In this document: piece after piece, positions 6,227-46,633 of the stretch
Layout of the letters: each line of letters begins with the position of its first letter
Numbering within the stretch: position 1 is the first letter of the stretch
Origin: a virus
Lineage: Duplodnaviria; Caudoviricetes
Reading direction: 5' to 3' (one strand)
Length of the DNA stretch: 47,519 nucleotides
IMG/VR virus record: IMGVR_UViG_3300032234_000260
Span: 1-47,519 of that record
The notes under the pieces: generated by a model
The model's database searches: none
Told to the model about the DNA's origin: nothing
What the model saw: only the letters and a program-made list of their open reading frames with translations
Position numbers and translations under genes: made by a program

Positions 6227-6245
6227 TTGTTTCTCCTTATTTTTT

Positions 6246-6311
6246 GGGAGCCGAGAGACGATCCCCCGACTTACTGCACCTGCGGTCGAGGGGGATTGGC
6301 GAACGGCTCCC
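6246..6311 (-). promoter_or_regulatory. 66-nt GC-rich two-stem hairpin, copy 1
   Basis: Outer stem GGGAGCCG/CGGCTCCC, inner stem ATCCCCC/GGGGGAT. Directly upstream of the SD of 5786..6226. Confidence 0.75.
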
Positions 6312-6388
6312 GCCTTTGACCTTCTATTACAATTTCACTATGTGACCTACCTATTAAGGAGTGATTTTCACTCCAAAAAGTCCGGGGG

Positions 6389-6733
6389 TTATTTTGCGAT
6401 AACAACCCAAAACTCCTCTGTGCCATCGTATGGGTCCTCATCTAGGAATGTGTTTGAACGCCATACTCTTTTGTTACCTGTTAGATGTTCGTTTGCAATC
6501 TCTGCAAGTTCATCATCTAGGAATCCGTCTGCTTGTTCGACTGGTTCCCATCTGTCTCCACAACAGCTGTCTCCAATCTCAACACAGTCACCCTCTCTAC
6601 GTCCGAAGTATCCGTCCATCTCGATGAGTGTTCTATTTGCTTCGAATGCATACTGAGCAAATATGTATATAACTAGTGGCATACCTGATTGTCCTTTGCC
6701 ACCACTGTTCTGTTGTCTGTATTCGAATATCAT
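6389..6733 (-). CDS. Hypothetical early protein (DUF7296-like pattern)
   Basis: Acidic ORF with FEYRQQNSGG and GDSCCGDRW. Start moved to MIFEY because of the AAGGAAGG SD. Confidence 0.6.
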   Translation of the reverse strand: MIFEYRQQNSGGKGQSGMPLVIYIFAQYAFEANRTLIEMDGYFGRREGDCVEIGDSCCGDRWEPVEQADGFLDDELAEIANEHLTGNKRVWRSNTFLDEDPYDGTEEFWVVIAK

Positions 6734-7345: not shown

Positions 7346-7363
7346 TTTGTTCTCCTTCTAATT

Positions 7364-7429
7364 GGGGGCGCAGAGGGATTACCCCGGCCCGTGGCGAGCT
7401 CCTGCTCAGGGGTAATACCTCAAGCCCCC
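7364..7429 (-). promoter_or_regulatory. 66-nt GC-rich multi-stem hairpin, copy 2
   Basis: Stems GGGGGC/GCCCCC, GAGG/CCTC and ATTACCCC/GGGGTAAT. Directly upstream of the SD of 7148..7345. Confidence 0.75.
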
Positions 7430-7543
7430 CTACCGTACCACCTAGTGGGCGTAGCCGGCGAAGCCGCACTATTACAATTTCATATCCTCTAGCGTAGCCT
7501 TAGGTGCGCTTTTACTTTTAAAATCTGCCGGGACTTTTAGCAT

Positions 7544-7577
7544 AAAAAAAGGCGAGACCGAAGTCCCGCCTTCTTTT
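7544..7577 (-). terminator. Rho-independent terminator (possibly bidirectional)
   Basis: Minus strand AAGGCGGGAC-TTCG-GTCTCGCCTT followed by a T run. Confidence 0.8.
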
Positions 7578-7579
7578 AC

Positions 7580-7708
7580 TTAACATTCACATTCGTGAAT
7601 ATTCTCCATGCACTCGAAGCAACAGTCACACAACTCGTTTGCCCAATTGCCACATACCTCGCAATAGAACTCGAACTGCTTGCTCATGATCTCGTTTATG
7701 TGAGTCAT
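7580..7708 (-). CDS. Cys-rich 42-aa peptide
   Basis: MTHINEIMSKQFEFYCEVCGNWANELCDCCFECMENIHECEC, with GGAG SD and ATGA overlap with the upstream gene. Confidence 0.6.
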   Translation of the reverse strand: MTHINEIMSKQFEFYCEVCGNWANELCDCCFECMENIHECEC

Positions 7709-8318: not shown

Positions 8319-9821
8319 TTAAGCAACCCGATGGGTTACTTTTTCTACTGACTTTGAATCTGTTTTTGTACCCGGTACTACTAGACCCGGTGTCTCCGAC
8401 GCTAGGAAGTAGTTGTACTTACCGAATACATTGACTAGGTCATAGAAGTCCATGACTTTGAAGAATGACTGCATTGTTGCGCCACGCTTTGCTGTCTCAA
8501 TTAGACCACGAACTACCCACGCGAAGAATGTAATTTTATCTGCATTGTAGTTGCAATCCATTTGACGGAACTCTATCGTACCACGATCGTTTAATAGATG
8601 CGATACGTTTACAGCCCTAGGCTTCTCTGCTTTGAGTTTTGGATCCTTTTTGCTCAAAGCAAATCTGATGTGTTCTATCGACACCCTGCGTGCATACTGC
8701 ACATCATTGCGTCCACATAGAACTGAGAAGAGACCTTCTAGTCTCTTGTATGTTGCCATGACTGTACCGACTTGCATAGTCGTTAAGTCTCCGGCCCATA
8801 CGTGAATGTGTGTACCTGCAGTGTCATTCATCTCTGCACCCTCGTCTAATAGCTTCTGGCACAAGTCATACATACCATTATGCTTTACACGTTGGATACC
8901 GCCTGTTGAACGATACTCTGCTGACTCAGCATCTGTGCATTCGCCGCTACCACAGTGATCTGGGCTGTCGTTGTAGTCGCTACAATTATCACAGTTGCAT
9001 TCGTGATAAGTACAATCGCTACAATAACATTCACAGTCTTCACTACCTTCGTATGAACGCAGTGAACCGTCATCACCTTTGTCGATTCCTGAGAACGGCA
9101 ATGGCTCTACACCTTTGCAGTCTGGAGATTCTATCTCGAATCCCCATGTGCGCGATGCTAGACCGTTTGACGGAAGTTGATTGCTTAGAGTTTTGATTTG
9201 CTCCTCTATGCGAAGCGTGAACTCTCTACCGCCTGATGGACCTTCGGTAAGGATTTTGTTTAGACCTGACCCTTGCTCTGTTTCATTCTTGACGATATTG
9301 ACACGCGCTTGCACAATCTCAACCCATCTTTGCAGACTGAATTTAGCATTTTTGAGTTCATCAATGCTTGGTCTGACTTCTGCGAACTTTCTCAGAACAA
9401 ACATAGCTGCAGTTTCTCTTGTATCATCATAGCCATATGAGCTAACGCCTCTAGCCCACATAACATGCTGATTAGAACCTGCACCTGCTGGTCTTGTCTC
9501 TGTGTCGTTTGCATATGCATTCAGCATTCCCTTCCAATAGATTAGCCTCAATCTATTTTGCGGGTTGGTTAGAAACTCTAACCCTCCAAATGATGTTTCA
9601 CCATATTCCCAATTACCATATGTTTGGTCGAGTAGCGGACCTTCGATGATGAATGTATCTGAGATTGCTACCGGGAAATCTGGAAAGAACTCATCCTTGA
9701 TTTCCTTTATTACTGTGTAAGGCATACGTTCGTAACCCATATCTGGTACGAATACCCTACGTTCGTCTATCTTTTGATAGAACTCTAGTGCTTGTTCTCT
9801 TAATTCAGAGTATGTTTGCAT
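8319..9821 (-). CDS. Putative amidoligase (COOH-NH2 ligase type 2, glutamine synthetase-like fold)
   Basis: Motifs TWGFEIE, DDGSL, EYRS, AGTHIHV and GTIEFRQ occur in the expected order. Confidence 0.85.
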   Translation of the reverse strand: MQTYSELREQALEFYQKIDERRVFVPDMGYERMPYTVIKEIKDEFFPDFPVAISDTFIIEGPLLDQTYGNWEYGETSFGGLEFLTNPQNRLRLIYWKGMLNAYANDTETRPAGAGSNQHVMWARGVSSYGYDDTRETAAMFVLRKFAEVRPSIDELKNAKFSLQRWVEIVQARVNIVKNETEQGSGLNKILTEGPSGGREFTLRIEEQIKTLSNQLPSNGLASRTWGFEIESPDCKGVEPLPFSGIDKGDDGSLRSYEGSEDCECYCSDCTYHECNCDNCSDYNDSPDHCGSGECTDAESAEYRSTGGIQRVKHNGMYDLCQKLLDEGAEMNDTAGTHIHVWAGDLTTMQVGTVMATYKRLEGLFSVLCGRNDVQYARRVSIEHIRFALSKKDPKLKAEKPRAVNVSHLLNDRGTIEFRQMDCNYNADKITFFAWVVRGLIETAKRGATMQSFFKVMDFYDLVNVFGKYNYFLASETPGLVVPGTKTDSKSVEKVTHRVA

Positions 9822-9992
9822 GTTGTTAGTTTCCTTTAACTATTAACAAAATGTTTTATTTGTACAGTCAATTGCGACTGCGATTGGAAGCATTACACCT
9901 ACTAAGATGAATACTGAAATTACTGTATACAAAATGAAGTTATCTAGCCTGTTTCCATCTATATCACGTTCCTTACTATATCTAATCGAATT

Positions 9993-10058
9993 GCCCGCAG
10001 CTGAGACACAACCCCGGGTGTTGCGCCGCGGTGTTGGGGGTTGTGGCGATGCGCGGGC
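9993..10058 (-). promoter_or_regulatory. 66-nt GC-rich two-stem hairpin, copy 3
   Basis: Outer stem GCCCGC/GCGGGC, inner stem CACAACCCC/GGGGTTGTG. Confidence 0.75.
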
Positions 10059-10144
10059 GGGGGTCTGGGGGGCACCCCCAGTACTATGATTGATCTCGTT
10101 TAGAGTCGATTTTCTATAATAGACTATAGAACCATATAGGATGG

Positions 10145-10173
10145 CTTATACCACAAAAGTGCCCGGATGTCAA
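10145..10173 (-). promoter_or_regulatory. Leftward sigma70/SigA-type promoter
   Basis: TTGACA-17 nt-TATAAG with TGTGG extended -10. Confidence 0.8.
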
Positions 10174-10188
10174 ATAGGATGGCACAAC

Positions 10189-10218
10189 TTGACAAAGTGC
10201 CGGGATCTGTGGTACATT
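10189..10218 (+). promoter_or_regulatory. Rightward sigma70/SigA-type promoter
   Basis: TTGACA-18 nt-TACATT with TGTGG extended -10. Confidence 0.75.
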
Positions 10219-10284
10219 GTATTACATAGGCAAATAGCCAACCCCCACAAAGGGAAAAAAATTCAAAAAGTTTTGAGAAAATGC

Positions 10285-10313
10285 TTGCGTTCGAGGTGTT
10301 TTTCCTGTAAACT
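10285..10313 (+). promoter_or_regulatory. Second rightward promoter candidate
   Basis: TTGCGT-17 nt-TAAACT upstream of the amidotransferase. Confidence 0.55.
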
Positions 10314-10365
10314 GATTATACAAACAAGAGATGGCTCGGATGAGCCGGAATAGGAAACCGATATT

Positions 10366-11454
10366 ATGTGTGGAATTGCTGGATTTAGTTTATCAAAAAA
10401 TTCTAGAATAAACCCTAGAAAGTTATCAAATGCATTGCTTTGTGGCATCGAGAGTCGTGGTAATCAAGCGGCTGGTTATGCTTGGCAAAATGGTGTGTCT
10501 TCAGGTATGTATAAGAGTAATGTTCGTGGTTCTAGTTTATCCCTAAAGGGTATGCCTAGAGATGCTGACACTGTTATCTTGCATACTCGCTATGCTACGC
10601 ATGGCTCCGTAAATGTTATGGCAAATAATCACCCTGTTGTTTCGCCTGACAAGAATATTGCTTTAGTGCACAATGGCGTTATTTATAATCACAAGCGTGT
10701 TCGTGCTGAGTTGCCTTATACTTTGCCAGAGGTCGATACTAGTGTTATTCCTGCTATTCTGCAAAAGTATGGCGTTGAGCGTTTAGATATGCTTGATGGC
10801 GATGCGTCTATTGCGTGGCTTGATGAGCGTGAGAATGGCACTTTGCGTGTCGGTCGTTTCTCTCATTCTCCTTTGTTTGTTGCACAGACAGAGGATGGCA
10901 GTCTTGTGTTTGCGTCGACAGAGAAAATCTTGCTCGAGGCTCTAAAGCGTGTTCGTCTCAGTGCCGTATATTTGCAACAGGTTGCCGAGAAAGCCCTTTA
11001 TACAGTCCGTCAGGGTCGTATTGACGCATCTGAGACTATGCCTGAGACTAGCCCGGAGTTCGAGGAGAAGTTGTCTTATTCTGCTTATGGCAAGTATCGT
11101 GGTATGACTGCTGGTGGCAAACTCAATAACTCTTCTGTTGTTGGTTATGGTTATGCTGATGGTTTAGATTACTCATCTGATCTTTATGAGGAATTAGATA
11201 GTGAAGAGTTCGAGGACTTTTTGACTAACTATTATGAGACTGATGGTTTCTTCTACGACTATTCTGGAACATTCTTGGGAGATATCGAGTCGATGCGTGA
11301 CATCTTCGAGGATTACCGATACAACGAGTATTGGATGGGCAAGGATGCTAACTATAATCCTTGGACTTTCACCGAAGGTACTGCCAAGAATTACGAGGCT
11401 CCACGCAGGTCTTCTCCTCGCGATTGGTATTGGAATGACAGTGAGATTTTTTAG
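10366..11454 (+). CDS. Class II (Ntn) glutamine amidotransferase
   Basis: N-terminal MCGIAG nucleophile, RG..AAG, LHTRYATHG, NNHP, HNGVIYN and VDTSVI, with an acidic Tyr-rich tail. Confidence 0.92.
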   Translation: MCGIAGFSLSKNSRINPRKLSNALLCGIESRGNQAAGYAWQNGVSSGMYKSNVRGSSLSLKGMPRDADTVILHTRYATHGSVNVMANNHPVVSPDKNIALVHNGVIYNHKRVRAELPYTLPEVDTSVIPAILQKYGVERLDMLDGDASIAWLDERENGTLRVGRFSHSPLFVAQTEDGSLVFASTEKILLEALKRVRLSAVYLQQVAEKALYTVRQGRIDASETMPETSPEFEEKLSYSAYGKYRGMTAGGKLNNSSVVGYGYADGLDYSSDLYEELDSEEFEDFLTNYYETDGFFYDYSGTFLGDIESMRDIFEDYRYNEYWMGKDANYNPWTFTEGTAKNYEAPRRSSPRDWYWNDSEIF

Positions 11455-12451: not shown

Positions 12452-12943
12452 ATGCAGACATTTATACCATACGCAGACTTTGCAGAGACCGCCTCTGTAT
12501 TGGATAATCAGCGACTAAACAAGCAAGCCTTAGAGGGCTGGCAGATTATGATGAGCAACTTGCAACTAGATCCCAACGGGGACTTTAGGCAGTCAAGGGG
12601 CTGGCGTAACCATCCAGCCGTTATAATGTGGCGTGGCTACGAGAGTGCCCTGCTAGATTACATCGGCTCTATGGTCTTTGAGTGGAAGGGTAGGGGCTAC
12701 AAATCTACCATCTACGACAAGGCTGAGGCGACTTACGAACGAGCACTTCAACTCGGTCTGACACAGGACAACCAGCCAGCAAGTTTGCCAGCATGGTTTT
12801 ACGAGGAGGACTTGCTCGGTAAGATAACCAGTTCGCACAGACAGGCTTTACTGTGTAAGAACTATGGATGGTATTCTCAGTTCGACTGGGCAGAGGACAC
12901 CGGAATAGCACCAACAAACTACGAATATACTTGGACAAGTTAG
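12452..12943 (+). CDS. Pyrimidine dimer DNA glycosylase-like protein (MSMEG_6728 family)
   Basis: MQTFIPY.DF..TA.VLD..RLNKQ..E, GWRNHPAV.MWRGYE and SHRQALL.K. Confidence 0.85.
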   Translation: MQTFIPYADFAETASVLDNQRLNKQALEGWQIMMSNLQLDPNGDFRQSRGWRNHPAVIMWRGYESALLDYIGSMVFEWKGRGYKSTIYDKAEATYERALQLGLTQDNQPASLPAWFYEEDLLGKITSSHRQALLCKNYGWYSQFDWAEDTGIAPTNYEYTWTS

Positions 12944-19386: not shown

Positions 19387-19617
19387 GTGAATATGGATAA
19401 AAGAATAATTTTTATTACGAGTGGGTGGATTGTGTTTGCAATGCGTTTCGGATTTGCCGGTGTTATGGTATGGGCAAGTACTGATGTCACGAATCAAGCA
19501 CTGCAGTTCACCTTGATAGGTCTTGCTGCAATTTTCTTTGGAAATGCAATCAGCCAGATAATCAAGATGTACGACTTCCTGAAAAAGGTCGACACGCTGA
19601 ATTTGACAATTGACTAG
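19387..19617 (+). CDS. Small membrane protein
   Basis: Two hydrophobic segments, AGGAGG SD (start may be the internal ATG). Confidence 0.6.
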   Translation: MNMDKRIIFITSGWIVFAMRFGFAGVMVWASTDVTNQALQFTLIGLAAIFFGNAISQIIKMYDFLKKVDTLNLTID

Positions 19618-19630
19618 AATATGGTATACT
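19603..19630 (+). promoter_or_regulatory. Promoter for the recombination/replication genes
   Basis: TTGACA-16 nt-TATACT with TGG before the -10. Confidence 0.7.
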
Positions 19631-19650: not shown

Positions 19651-20379
19651 ATGACAAACTTTCCAGCATTGCCTTTCGAAAAGGCAATCAAAAAGGCCTC
19701 GGCCCTAAACGCACCAAAAACCATTCTTCTCTACGGAGACCCAAAGCGTGGTAAGTCATGGCTAGCGGCATCTGCCAGCGAACTAGCAGATCTCTCTCCA
19801 GTGCTCTTCATCGACACTGAGGGTGGCTCTTCTGCGATTGCTCGCGACTGGCCTGATGTGAATGTTGTGGATGGCGACACTCACGAAAAGCTAGACATCA
19901 TCATCAACTCGTTGCTATCTCAGGAACACCAGTACAAGACTGTCATTATCGACACTCTTGGTGTTGCGATGGATAGAGCAGAAAAGTTCTTTGGTGACAA
20001 GCCTGAGAACCGCAACAACAAGTTTGGTAAGTGGGGCGACCTAAAGGAGTGGATTACGGATATGACCCGTAAACTACACTCTGCTCCATTCCTTTCAATT
20101 CTTGTAGCACACGCACAGGACGAGAAAGACGACCAAACCGGTGCTGTGAAGACAGTGCCAATGCTACCGGGTTCTGCAAAGAACACACTGCCTGCAATTC
20201 CAGACATCATCGGCTATATGACTGCCGAGGCTGATGGCAACGGAGGTATCAACCGCGTCCTATACATGCAATCGTCAGAGCGCTTAGTGTCGGGCAACCG
20301 CTTTGGACTACCTGCTAAAATGGTAGACCCAAGCATCAAAAAAATAATCACATCAATTCCACAAGGAGGAACCAAATAA
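19651..20379 (+). CDS. AAA_24 / Sak4-like ATPase
   Basis: LLYGDPKRGKS, FIDTEGG, TVIIDT, LVAH and DIIGYM. Confidence 0.85.
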   Translation: MTNFPALPFEKAIKKASALNAPKTILLYGDPKRGKSWLAASASELADLSPVLFIDTEGGSSAIARDWPDVNVVDGDTHEKLDIIINSLLSQEHQYKTVIIDTLGVAMDRAEKFFGDKPENRNNKFGKWGDLKEWITDMTRKLHSAPFLSILVAHAQDEKDDQTGAVKTVPMLPGSAKNTLPAIPDIIGYMTAEADGNGGINRVLYMQSSERLVSGNRFGLPAKMVDPSIKKIITSIPQGGTK

Positions 20380-20852
20380 TGAGTAGTCTAAACTTCTCAG
20401 CTGACGCGTTTGAATCGTCAGGCTCATATTCACCAGTGCCAGCAGGCACTTACAACGCAACAATCTACGAGGTAAAGATTGTTCAGGTCAAGTCTGGCGA
20501 AAACGCTGGCAAGGATCAGTTCAATGTTCAGTTCCGCATCTCAGATGGGCAGTACGAGAACCGTCGCCTATTCACCTACATTCCTCTATACGCTGGTAAG
20601 GCGCAGTGGAAAGCTCTGGCATTCTTCAAGGCACTTGGCTACGAGCCAAAGCCAAACGAGCCATTCCAGATTCCAACTCCTGCAGACCTAGGTGGCAAGC
20701 CTATTGGTGTAAAGGTTACGGTTGTGCAAGACCAGAATGGTGGCGACGACAACAATGTCTCTGGCTTTTCCAGCCTAAAGGTTTCTGACGCAGTTCAGAA
20801 CCTGACATCAATCCTTGGTGCAACACCGACTAACAACTCTTCTATCTGGTAA
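20379..20852 (+). CDS. DUF669-like ssDNA-binding protein
   Basis: PVPAGTYNATI, G.YENRRLF and FFKALG, adjacent to the Sak4-like ATPase. Confidence 0.75.
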   Translation: MSSLNFSADAFESSGSYSPVPAGTYNATIYEVKIVQVKSGENAGKDQFNVQFRISDGQYENRRLFTYIPLYAGKAQWKALAFFKALGYEPKPNEPFQIPTPADLGGKPIGVKVTVVQDQNGGDDNNVSGFSSLKVSDAVQNLTSILGATPTNNSSIW

Positions 20853-20874
20853 TAATTTTCCAGTAGAAATGGGC

Positions 20875-20902
20875 AATCCTGAGCATGATTCAAAACTGCT
20901 CA
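20875..20902 (+). ncRNA. Compact H-type pseudoknot candidate
   Basis: AATC/GATT and TGAGCA/TGCTCA are interleaved, with a CAAAAC linker. Confidence 0.5.
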
Positions 20903-20905
20903 CAA

Positions 20906-20973
20906 GCCCCCACTGGTGTTTAGCGTTTCGTCTCCTTTCGCTAAAGATAAGTTCGATTCTTATCCGGGGCACC
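20906..20973 (+). ncRNA. tRNA-like RNA with an anti-SD loop
   Basis: Terminal stem GCCCC/GGGGC followed by ACC, T-arm ATAAG-TTCGATT-CTTAT, central stem TTTAGCG/CGCTAAA with loop TTTCGTCTCCTTT, no D-stem. Confidence 0.65.
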
Positions 20974-20976
20974 GTA

Positions 20977-21056
20977 GGGCCTGAAATGGTGTCGATTGCT
21001 CGTCAAAGCCACAAGTTGGAGCGAGTAAGACCACAGTTCAATTCTGTGCAGGTCCA
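20977..21056 (+). ncRNA. Mini-tmRNA (tRNA-like domain only)
   Basis: Acceptor GGGCCTG/CAGGTCC-A with G3.U70, stemless D-loop AAATGGTGTCGA, helix TTGCTCGT/GCGAGTAA, GAC linker, T-arm CACAG-TTCAATT-CTGTG. Confidence 0.8.
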
Positions 21057-21085
21057 CAAATAAAAACTGAATGAAAGGAGGATAA

Positions 21086-23281
21086 GTGAATACAAAAGAT
21101 TTTTTGGAGACAATCTTAGGTAGTAGCGCAGGTTATGCAACAATCGTAACTAAAGACGCTAAAGGTGTCCCGACTGTTCAGAAGTTTTTCAGCTATCCAG
21201 ATGAGTTAGATGAGATGGCAGAATACGCCATCGCCCACAAAGAAGAAGATGTTTACTTCTCACCAATTGTGTATTACGAGCAGAGACGCATTCGCGAGAA
21301 CGCAAAGTCTGTTGCGGTAGTTTATTCTGATGCAGATACTTGCAACCCAGAAAACTTTAGGATTACACCATCTATTGTTGTAGAGACTTCAAAAGACAGG
21401 TGGCATGCATACTGGGTGCTAGACGCATCTTCAGAACCTAACAGGGTTGCCATGCTGGCTAAGCAGATTGCATACGCACACCGCGAGCAGGGCTGTGATG
21501 TCTCCGGCTGGAACCCAACTAAACTACTTCGTGTCGCTGACACAAGCAATCTAAAGTACGATTCTTCTCAGCCTGTTGTAGCGACTACTAATGGCTTGAT
21601 TTACTCTATCGAAGAGATTGAAAAGGCTTATGCTGATGTAGCGGTTGACAAGGTGTTAGAGCCTAGCAATGACCCACTACCAGAGATTACATCAGATGTG
21701 ATGTCTGTGCTAGCAAAGATCTCCAGCAATAAGGAAGTTCTTTCGCTATACATTGACGAGCCAACCCCTAACGCAGATTTGTCTAAGATGCTGTGGAAGA
21801 TGGAGATGGAGTTATTCCGTCAAGGCTTGACTGCTGAAGAAGTTTTTGTCGTAGCAAAACATGCAAAGTGCAACAAGTACCACTCACCAAATAGACCTAG
21901 ACGCTTTGACGCTGATGGAGATCTTTGGCGTGAAGTGCTTAGGGCTAGAGATAGTTTTATCGCTAACAGTGCAAACCCAGAACCAATTGAGGACATCGAG
22001 GCTGATGAAGAAACTCGCAAGGTTGACTTTTTATCCGCCGAGGAGCGTGAATATGTAGCGAACACTCGCACATTTATTGACGACTATGTTGACTGGGCTC
22101 AGAAGAAAACTGATGGTGCTGTTGAATACCAGATTGCTGGTGCGTTTACGATTCTATCTTCTGCATTCTCCGACATTGGATGTGCTGCTCCTAAGTACGG
22201 CAAGATGGGCTTGAATCTCTGGTTCATGCTTTTGGGTGAAACAACTCGTAGCCGTAAATCCACAAGCCGTAACCTAATGCTAAGAATGCTTACTGCATAC
22301 GAAAAGTATGTTGGCTACCAGATTGACATTGGTTCTAACGCAACCGGTGAGGCGCTTGTAAAGCACTTATCAGGTCGCGATAAAATGACATCACTGTTCC
22401 ACCGAGATGAGGTGCAGGGTTTGTTCCGAGAGTTTGTGACAAAGACTTACATGGCTGCAGCTGCTGACCAATACACAGAACTTTACGATGGTAAAGTCCC
22501 TGTAATGTTGCGTTCTACTGGCGCACAGAACGGTGTAAAGGCTTTGCAGACTGAGCGAGCAGAAACAAACTTCATCATGTATCTGATGGGTATCACCAGC
22601 AAGGTTGCTGAGATTCTAACTGTGGACTACTTCCGCTCCGGTTTCTTGGCTCGTTTTATCTATGTAGTGGCTGATGCACCTGAGCGCTCAAGAGAGAGCG
22701 AAGATCTTGCACAGGCAAGCGAGCATGAAACCATTGTGCGTGACGATGAGATGGAGCGCATTATCCGTTCAGTTTACGACAGTGCGCTGTGGTGGCAGAA
22801 AAAGGGTGGCGTGTTCCCTAGACCAATCTTCTTGACTGATGAGGCTCTAAGCCGATTCAACGCGTTCAAGTGGGAGATGGGTAACTTTACTAACGGACAC
22901 CCAAATGAGGAGTCTATCGAGCCATCTCGCCAGCGTCTAGCCCTATCTGTGTGGAAGTGTGCAGTGCTACTAGCCCTGTATGACCGCTCAGAAAAGGTTG
23001 AGACCCAACACCTAGCTATTGCTATTCACTATGCTGAGGGCTGGTTCAAGAACCTAATTCGCATGGCTGGTGCTATCTCAGCGTCAGAATGGCAGAGAGA
23101 TGTTGATGGGCTTGAGGCGGTAATCCTTTCAAAGGGTGGGCGCATGCGTTACGAAGAGGCGTACAAAAAGTTCAGCAACAAGCGTAAGCGCGAGTTTGAT
23201 GAAATGGTTGATGCACTGCGTTCGCAAGCTAGACTAAAAGTATTTGTAGAGGGCAGTAAGACATTTTTGGAGTTGATTTAA
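21086..23281 (+). CDS. DNA primase (RepB-like) fused to helicase-like domain (DUF3987-like)
   Basis: DVYF, YSDAD, VETS..RWHAYW and LLRVADT.NLKY in the N-terminus. GETTRSRKST, HRDE and SGFLARF in the C-terminus. Confidence 0.85.
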   Translation: MNTKDFLETILGSSAGYATIVTKDAKGVPTVQKFFSYPDELDEMAEYAIAHKEEDVYFSPIVYYEQRRIRENAKSVAVVYSDADTCNPENFRITPSIVVETSKDRWHAYWVLDASSEPNRVAMLAKQIAYAHREQGCDVSGWNPTKLLRVADTSNLKYDSSQPVVATTNGLIYSIEEIEKAYADVAVDKVLEPSNDPLPEITSDVMSVLAKISSNKEVLSLYIDEPTPNADLSKMLWKMEMELFRQGLTAEEVFVVAKHAKCNKYHSPNRPRRFDADGDLWREVLRARDSFIANSANPEPIEDIEADEETRKVDFLSAEEREYVANTRTFIDDYVDWAQKKTDGAVEYQIAGAFTILSSAFSDIGCAAPKYGKMGLNLWFMLLGETTRSRKSTSRNLMLRMLTAYEKYVGYQIDIGSNATGEALVKHLSGRDKMTSLFHRDEVQGLFREFVTKTYMAAAADQYTELYDGKVPVMLRSTGAQNGVKALQTERAETNFIMYLMGITSKVAEILTVDYFRSGFLARFIYVVADAPERSRESEDLAQASEHETIVRDDEMERIIRSVYDSALWWQKKGGVFPRPIFLTDEALSRFNAFKWEMGNFTNGHPNEESIEPSRQRLALSVWKCAVLLALYDRSEKVETQHLAIAIHYAEGWFKNLIRMAGAISASEWQRDVDGLEAVILSKGGRMRYEEAYKKFSNKRKREFDEMVDALRSQARLKVFVEGSKTFLELI

Positions 23282-46467: not shown

Positions 46468-46487
46468 AGTTATACTATTATAACACG

Positions 46488-46564
46488 CAAAAGGGAAAAC
46501 CCTTCGGAGCTATGGCTCAACGAAGGGTCTTCACGCAGAAGCGCGGAAAGGAGGGTACCGCGCT
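46488..46564 (-). ncRNA. Candidate ~75-nt small RNA with anti-SD loop
   Basis: TATAAT at 46575-46570, hairpin AGCGCGG-TACCCTCCTTT-CCGCGCT, then terminator ACCCTTCG/CGAAGGGT with T-rich tail. Confidence 0.65.
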
Positions 46565-46586
46565 ATTCAATTATACCTCATCAAGT

Positions 46587-46616
46587 AAAAAACCCCCACC
46601 GAAGTGAGGGCTTTTT
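46587..46616 (-). terminator. Terminator after the major capsid gene
   Basis: Minus strand GCCCTCAC-TTCG-GTGGGGGT followed by a T run. Confidence 0.85.
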
Positions 46617-46633
46617 ATTATAGCTTAAAGTGA

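Follow-up and report, generated by a model that had tools for sequence, protein, structure and literature searches.

The window analysed here, a complete 47.5-kb virus record (47,519 nucleotides) with direct terminal repeats, carries an 80-nt mini-tmRNA which, as far as sequence comparison can tell, is a real, conserved and accessory phage gene. Positions 20977-21056 form a complete tmRNA tRNA-like domain (TLD) without the message part (Table 1). That this RNA has no tag had been claimed from the sequence and was borne out; the novelty implied with the claim was not, as a TLD-only tmRNA has already been described for mycobacteriophage DS6A. What the analysis adds to the known DS6A kind is breadth and constraint: the supposed oddity of a single phage belongs to a large gene family that is under tight constraint and has gone almost entirely without annotation.

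Table 1. The mini-tmRNA, its parts and the features around it in the window
Feature	Position	Strand	Basis or detail
Promoter-like site, 11/12, extended -10, at the head of the likely Sak4-SSB-primase operon	19603..19630	+	site scan
SSB-like DUF669 protein gene, upstream of the mini-tmRNA	20379..20852	+	
Neighbour RNA, H-type pseudoknot	20871..20902	+	pairs 20875-78 / 20887-90 and 20880-85 / 20897-902
Neighbour RNA, tRNA-like module	20906..20972	+	5-bp closing stem, D-like loop, 7-bp stem, T-arm
TLD-only ("standard, no CDS") tmRNA gene, DS6A type	20977..21056	+	sequence, fold, covariation, homology
Acceptor stem 5' strand; G3 (20979) pairs with U70 (21053)	20977..20983	+	fold
Stemless D-loop with GG and UCGA	20984..20995	+	sequence
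Helix 2a (7-8 bp), AAAG/A internal loop and 3-bp hairpin cap	20996..21028	+	fold, covariation
Helix 2a strands	20996-21003 / 21021-21028	+	fold
GAC linker	21029..21031	+	sequence
T-arm, 5 bp, UUCAAUU loop	21032..21048	+	fold, covariation
Acceptor stem 3' strand (21049-21055), discriminator A 21056, then CAA	21049..21059	+	sequence
Shine-Dalgarno site of the primase gene, complementary to the anti-SD loop of the neighbour RNA	21073..21081	+	sequence
DNA primase gene, downstream of the mini-tmRNA	21086..23281	+	

A tRNA-like domain without a message

The original prediction had listed a 7-bp acceptor stem with G3.U70 and an A discriminator, a stemless D-loop, a GAC linker and a T-arm, and all of these were found in place. 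It had also noted that CCA is not encoded, and the discriminator is indeed followed by CAA; the missing CCA would be completed by the host. The 17-nt loop that it described (21004-21020) does replace the pseudoknots and tag frame, but is not a plain loop, consisting of an asymmetric internal loop and a 3-bp hairpin (21009-21011 / 21017-21019). Likewise, the proposed 8-bp helix 2a is present, but its eighth pair is weak and is unpaired in 13 of 23 aligned rows. The D-loop and the linker are separated by 33 nt, nearly all of which lie inside this arm, with neither a tag frame nor pseudoknots. G3.U70, the D-loop and the linker have known roles in tmRNA, the GG and UCGA of the D-loop forming the SmpB-binding side. 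The 80 nt fold at -27.9 kcal/mol (z -2.41; 2 of 200 shuffles were as good), and a rule-based caller for the full anatomy made a single call in the window and none in 300 Markov-simulated windows of equal length.

Within the window, ARAGORN returned no match and no tRNA, and Rfam gave no match at gathering level; RF00023 run against the genome itself yielded no candidate. The expectation that both ends would align to RF00023 across a large internal deletion held for relatives, one of which does so at 51.9 bits against a cut-off of 47, but not for the window copy, which was not listed (one overlapping match of the same clan was left out). The cut-off was passed by 22 of 26 mini-bearing records, and the D-loop, helix 2a and linker of the window copy match the ends of the RF00023 consensus. 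ARAGORN misses the family, and Rfam filters often do so. Several other identities were considered and rejected. A permuted two-piece tmRNA (RF04321) conflicts with the standard order of the strands and was matched, in E-value mode, by the 3' half only, as a truncated match of 19.8-21.7 bits against 47. For a standard tmRNA, the window copy lacks the mRNA-like domain, tag frame and pseudoknots, and was not listed by RF00023 at the gathering cut-off; for tRNA-Ala, the fold lacks a D-stem and ARAGORN reported no tRNA. An ssrA attachment-site remnant was rejected on the presence and covariation of both ends and on the lack of an integrase family in the 63 ORFs.

The original prediction had pointed to phage databases for homologues of the same length, and these are numerous. 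A family caller was set to demand a fully paired T-stem (5/5), no fewer than 6/7 pairs in the acceptor stem, GG...UCGA in the D-loop and either GAC or CAC as linker. After removal of one false call it left at least 252 distinct sequences, 75-89 nt long, which form at least 192 clusters at 90% and at least 149 at 80%. Pattern scans of IMG/VR gave 27 loci and, in two further scans, at least 119 and at least 120; scans of metagenomes gave at least 119 loci and those of bacterial genomes 10, comprising seven minis, two 3' ends of full tmRNAs and one locus (L154) that is not a mini. Among the matches listed, 247 of the 252 members are 76-82 nt long, and the spacing from D-loop to linker is 28-43 nt across all 252. 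CCA is encoded in 77 of these 252 members, again among the matches listed, and in 15 of 30 full-length tmRNAs, so that its absence from the window copy is ordinary.

UCGA and GAC were fixed by the search patterns, most of which also fixed the 3' end; a blind pattern left the acceptor stem, the discriminator, the D-loop GG and all pairing free. This pattern gave at least 120 matches, one of them at a contig edge, the remainder comprising 102 distinct sequences. Among the matches listed, G1-C72, G2-C71, G3.U70, A73, the D-loop GG and a 5/5 T-stem occur in 102 of 102 blind-set sequences and a 7/7 acceptor stem in 101 of 102, while acceptor pairs 4-7 each show four to six compensating pair types. 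In a plain (unfitted) MAFFT alignment of 23 sequences, 92.5% of cells are paired and 13 of the 23 pairs change on both sides. Helix 2a contributes changes on both sides at 7 of 8 pairs and the T-arm, with 100% of cells paired, at 4 of 5; the last pair of the inner hairpin is changed on both sides in 11 of the 23 rows. The covariation score was reached by 0 of 500 shuffles, which ignore relatedness, and slid registers scored far lower. A remnant devoid of covariation, which the original prediction had named as its possible undoing, is not what the alignment displays, every helix being seen to covary.

With a pattern blind to the inner part, an AA-n(1-2)-CC motif was found in 67 of 77 sequences and a CC...GG hairpin in 62 of the same 77, which include one false call. 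At the same place, the motif was found in 0 of 30 parsed full-length tmRNAs (33 tried, mostly actinobacterial). The RF00023 consensus has a GAa..cccc bulge after helix 2a, and the inner motif may descend from this helix-2a-junction bulge in another lineage. The inner stem itself is short and variable, a strict parser finding all three base pairs in 142 of the 252 members among the matches listed. From the shared inner motif we infer one family that spread sideways and not repeated deletions of host genes, 80 nt with fixed motifs being too little for a tree.

For the TLD-only tmRNA of DS6A, PMC4131195 and PMC11915505 cite Mao et al. 2009. This phage is listed as having a "TLD only" tmRNA, and a similar molecule is described as a strong inhibitor of tmRNA irrespective of whether it can be charged, possibly through titration of SmpB (PMC4131195, in part); the DS6A type of RNA is reported to inhibit E. 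coli tmRNA (PMC11915505 and PMC4131195, both in part). A 2025 database holds nine "standard, no CDS" entries among 97,179 sequences, with DS6A as the named phage case (PMC11915505, in part), and some members of the present family may already be deposited there. A literature search that covered few subscription journals found no paper describing a wide phage family of mini-tmRNAs. By homology, the window RNA belongs to the DS6A kind: the DS6A RNA, unannotated at JN698994:28478-28560, scores 70.5 bits on a model (R1) that was built without it, and R1 finds it where the GAC-linker pattern misses it. The two RNAs share the 80-nt architecture, G3.U70, A73, the stemless D-loop, helix 2a, an AAA-x-CC...GG inner hairpin, the lack of an encoded CCA and an intergenic position in a phage. 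They are, however, ~60% identical, the linker is CAC in DS6A and GAC in the window copy, and DS6A has an annotated integrase whereas none was found in the window phage.

Standard tmRNA (RF00023, and the full-length forms of Bxz1-like mycobacteriophages and of Streptomyces phages) has all of the same tRNA-like-domain features. The window copy differs from it in having no pseudoknots, resume site, tag frame or stop codon, in possessing an inner hairpin of its own, and in the distance from D-loop to linker, which is ~300 nt in the standard form. The CDS-less tmRNAs of organelles (permuted mitochondrial forms and a ~65 bp form in Mallomonadaceae plastids) likewise keep the TLD and lack a tag frame, but they are the organelle's own genes, with a nucleus-encoded SmpB in the mitochondrial case (PMC11915505, in part), whereas the phage mini-tmRNA is a mobile gene that meets an intact host tmRNA.

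Mobility and distribution of the mini-tmRNA gene

The mini-tmRNA is cleanly absent from one relative (L001) whose flanks are 86-87% identical to those of the window on both sides, and is present in another (L002), where a tRNA-Thr precedes it. Between the window and a 6.4-kb contig of another phage, nucleotide similarity is confined to one copy of the gene, 98.8% identical over 82 nt. On such comparisons, the gene moves alone between phages. At the loci read, relatives hold the short form or nothing, and the full-length tmRNA that the original prediction had considered possible at this site in relatives was not seen. Contigs of relatives from two other sequencing runs span the site in one piece, which rules out misassembly, and a related assembly carries 21011A>G together with 21017T>C, a compensatory change in the inner hairpin. 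Of 42 related records, 3 gave a strong match, as did 1 of the 10 that are at least 90% complete; since most close kin are without it, the mini-tmRNA is an accessory gene. No dedicated protein partner was found among its neighbours, the largest shared-neighbour cluster covering 9 of 96 loci and the flanking genes varying widely.

It is very improbable that the element is non-functional or passive, be it an attachment-site remnant, a recent deletion of a full tmRNA, a misassembly or a processing signal. Its absence between the well-conserved flanks of L001 and its location in a cassette of tRNA-like elements would suit such an origin, but both ends are intact, all four helices covary, the 63 ORFs include no integrase, and the independent assemblies of relatives cover the site in one piece. 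Moreover, the inner motif is missing from all 30 parsed full-length tmRNAs, and G3.U70, found in 102 of 102 sequences among the matches listed, would be superfluous in a processing signal.

When the window copy was compared with cultured phages by blastn, only short chance matches or matches to tRNA T-arms were obtained, and the cultured-phage members were recovered only by querying with other members of the family. Unannotated minis scoring 58-64 bits lie inside tRNA clusters in the Streptomyces phages LuckySocke (OR725497:17977-18057), Shaeky and BRock; GiJojo, pSt2308 and Alone3 gave similar blastn matches, read at match level only. A mini and a full tmRNA occur together in one phage record (G026) of the 26 searched, and Streptomyces phage Riptide has a full tmRNA plus a mini with altered D-loop and linker. 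The latter (L506, 2477-2556) is degenerate, with a gene for a Ro-like protein 2 kb upstream, and the full tmRNA of Riptide (L507, 1501-1767) is unusually short, at ~270 nt, with the tag ANSKFAFALAA. The genomes of Cellulomonas massiliensis and Phytoactinopolyspora halophila each contain a mini and a full tmRNA; no prophage was demonstrated in the region of the Cellulomonas mini, where only a regulator, a helicase and unknown families were seen. Two different mini-tmRNAs are present in a single 136-kb phage record (G148:C1:42520-42602 and 109671-109753). In a cyanobacterial genome bin, a mini (G144:C5:14777-14856) is the only RF00023 match at E 1e-15, and the host's own tmRNA gene may have the permuted form or may not have been captured in the bin.

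Possible roles in ribosome rescue

We see roughly an even chance that the mini-tmRNA, loaded with alanine, acts as a competitor: with the help of host SmpB it would gain entry to non-stop ribosomes and hold down host tagging. Such an RNA would be processed from the transcript of the replication operon and aminoacylated with alanine; host SmpB and EF-Tu would bind it, and it would then rival host tmRNA both for SmpB and for access to non-stop ribosomes. Once there, it would receive the growing peptide and displace the truncated message. As it has no reading frame, it would append only alanine (one or several) and not a degradation tag, and as it also lacks a stop codon, termination would depend on drop-off in the host or on ArfB-type routes. 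The net effect would be a suppression of host tagging during infection. We infer expression, processing, charging, ribosome entry in vivo and benefit to the phage. There is precedent for the ribosomal steps: TLD and SmpB together imitate a complete tRNA; they occupy an empty A site, take on the nascent chain and translocate, ejecting truncated mRNA, and they make polyalanine without a template in vitro (PMC3929946 and PMC2481249, both in part). The polyalanine result concerns a laboratory construct, an engineered E. coli fragment used in vitro (Shimizu and Ueda 2006), and comes through the citing papers (PMC2481249 and PMC3929946, both in part).

The constrained length (75-89 nt), the invariant alanine identity of the blind set (among the matches listed), the homology to DS6A, the covariation and the lack of a phage SmpB count in favour of a charged competitor. 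No SmpB family was detected among the 63 scanned ORFs of the window or in any of 36 phage records searched (0 of the 15 that are at least 90% complete), and SmpB is present in both host genomes tested. Against this reading, most close kin do without the RNA, and the possession of a full tmRNA as well by G026 and Riptide is awkward for a general inhibitor. The need of lambda-immP22 for trans-translation (PMC2862035, in part) also speaks against a lytic phage gaining from a block to tagging. Finally, charging might be kept only for stabilisation by EF-Tu or for tighter capture of SmpB, which would fit a pure SmpB sponge equally.

Such a sponge, which would titrate SmpB off host tmRNA and leave the latter inactive and unstable, with ribosome entry incidental, we regard as unlikely. 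It is the mechanism suggested for DS6A, where inhibition occurs whether or not the RNA is chargeable (PMC4131195, in part), and it agrees with the D-loop GG kept in 102 of 102 blind-set sequences among the matches listed and with the lack of SmpB in the 36 phage records. Nevertheless, because inhibition needs no chargeability (PMC4131195, in part), the invariant G3.U70 favours ribosome entry over sequestration. Titration alone would leave G3.U70 and A73, invariant beside covarying pairs, unexplained, along with the fixed length and the conserved inner arm, and full tmRNA co-occurs in two phages.

The original prediction had offered two roles, sequestration of SmpB or release of stalled ribosomes without a tag. 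These are not exclusive; the alanine identity argues for ribosome entry over pure sequestration, and a clean tagless release would have to proceed without a stop codon. We consider it quite unlikely that the RNA is a tagless rescue factor that frees stalled ribosomes faster than it blocks tagging and so protects phage translation from RNases or toxins. The same role has been proposed for the CDS-less organellar tmRNAs, and both the invariant alanine identity and the ejection of truncated mRNA through EF-G-driven translocation of TLD.SmpB (PMC3929946, in part) are in keeping with it, as is the finding that proteolysis matters less to lambda-immP22 than charging and recycling (PMC2862035, in part). 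Minis often lie in tRNA clusters, and in two Streptomyces phages they are near RNA ligase genes. In contrast, the lack of a stop codon leaves no release-factor step, an E. coli tmRNA with the resume codon changed to a stop fails to support lambda-immP22 (EOP 1.3e-5; PMC2862035, in part), and the one relative tested inhibited and did not help (PMC11915505, in part).

The RNA might also, though improbably, serve as a decoy that draws off host nucleases or defence proteins able to recognise tmRNA as such or by its tRNA-like domain. The patchy presence of the mini-tmRNA and its recent exchange between unrelated phages, both typical of counter-defence genes, would agree with this. CoCoNuT systems carry SmpB-like domains, and their RNases are predicted to engage tmRNA, but the link to tmRNA is itself only predicted (PMC11090510, in part); the lack of variation among phages so unlike one another suggests a partner present everywhere, SmpB or AlaRS for example.

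Returning to the charged competitor, it is possible, though unlikely, that successive Ala-mini-tmRNA.SmpB complexes would pass the chain on along non-stop ribosomes, so that template-free oligo-alanine replaces the tag. If true, this would be an RNA-encoded counterpart of RqcH, by which phages reroute both stalled ribosomes and their products. RqcH tailing is a protein-driven 50S pathway, in contrast to the RNA considered here, and alanine tails act as a ClpXP degron in B. subtilis (PMC8012679, in part). No natural RNA shown to add untemplated alanine in vivo is mentioned in the available portions of PMC2481249, PMC3929946 and PMC8012679. If the mini-tmRNA does work as a competitor, a single RNA of 80 bases would be the means by which many phages attack the chief ribosome-rescue pathway of bacteria, and a naturally occurring inhibitor would also help in the study of trans-translation. 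The action of a tagless tmRNA on the ribosome, an old question that concerns the organellar forms too, becomes directly testable, because intact copies exist in cultured Streptomyces phages with a tractable host.

Gene context and the neighbouring anti-Shine-Dalgarno RNA

The genes of the window include those for terminase, portal, tail, WhiB, Sak4-like, SSB and primase proteins, and the nearest cultured relatives of the primase are mostly from Arthrobacter, Curtobacterium and Clavibacter phages (31-38% identity). On these grounds the virus is probably a tailed phage of actinobacteria; no integrase family was found among its 63 scanned ORFs. The mini-tmRNA sits on the coding strand in the 233-nt gap between the SSB-like gene and the primase gene, 1.35 kb downstream of a promoter-like site rated strong, in a loose-threshold scan that found 2 sites against 2.5 expected by chance. 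No terminator-like site was found on the + strand from this site to the primase, and the mini-tmRNA is likely to be carried by the Sak4-SSB-primase operon. An 82-codon TTG frame at 20815-21063 was rejected as a functional unit, having no Pfam match and being broken in L001.

The same gap contains a second RNA (20871-20972), in which the loop of the 7-bp stem of the tRNA-like module displays UCUCCUUU at 20931-20938, with CUCCUU in the central loop. It occurs at 44 IMG/VR loci, often followed by tRNA genes. CTCCTT formed part of the search pattern and its conservation therefore carries no independent weight; the pseudoknot lies outside the pattern. A pseudoknot could be parsed in 26 of 30 distinct copies, and in an alignment of these 26, 4 of 4 and 5 of 7 pairs change on both sides; in the tRNA-like module the T-stem covaries and the closing stem is invariant. 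Neither an Rfam match nor, in the literature search, a description was found, and by its pattern of conservation the neighbour is a separate, uncatalogued two-part RNA family. It is also more constant than the mini-tmRNA in the related phage group.

A mini-tmRNA lies within 600 nt of the neighbour RNA at 5 of the 44 loci, and two pairs of these look like the same phage. The original prediction had joined the two in an RNA-based translation-control system. The anti-SD RNA is real and conserved, but with so few loci in common the two RNAs share a cassette and do not form an obligate system. In the minimum-energy fold of 20853-21088, the anti-SD loop pairs with the Shine-Dalgarno site of the primase and the fold of the mini-tmRNA is unchanged; because this pairing can form, the neighbour RNA may act as a cis leader.

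Several smaller observations concern these elements. The 5' GGGC of the neighbour RNA can alternatively pair with GCCC of the closing stem, a possible switch. Short contigs consisting of a 30-nt pseudoknot piece (20875-20904 of the window) were present at high depth in two sequencing runs, which suggests that many phages in those samples share the piece. In L002 (2990-3420), the same gap is ~530 nt long and holds folded segments, a variant pseudoknot, an anti-SD module, tRNA-Thr(TGT) and the mini-tmRNA; it is a variable RNA cassette. Pyrimidine-rich, anti-SD-like hairpin loops lie just upstream of the mini-tmRNA at three other loci (L007, L008 and L016).

Elsewhere in the window, divergent genes for an amidoligase-like protein and a glutamine amidotransferase lie at 8319-11454, and a pyrimidine-dimer glycosylase gene at 12452-12943. 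On the minus strand, GC-rich folded leaders at 6227-6390 and 7346-7580 end just before Shine-Dalgarno sites, and both have the same promoter-like string, TGAAATTGTAATAG, ahead of them. A second anti-SD display is found at 46468-46633 on the minus strand, where a small hairpin with a CCCUCCUUUC loop precedes a long hairpin, the two coming after a terminator-like hairpin and a promoter-like site.
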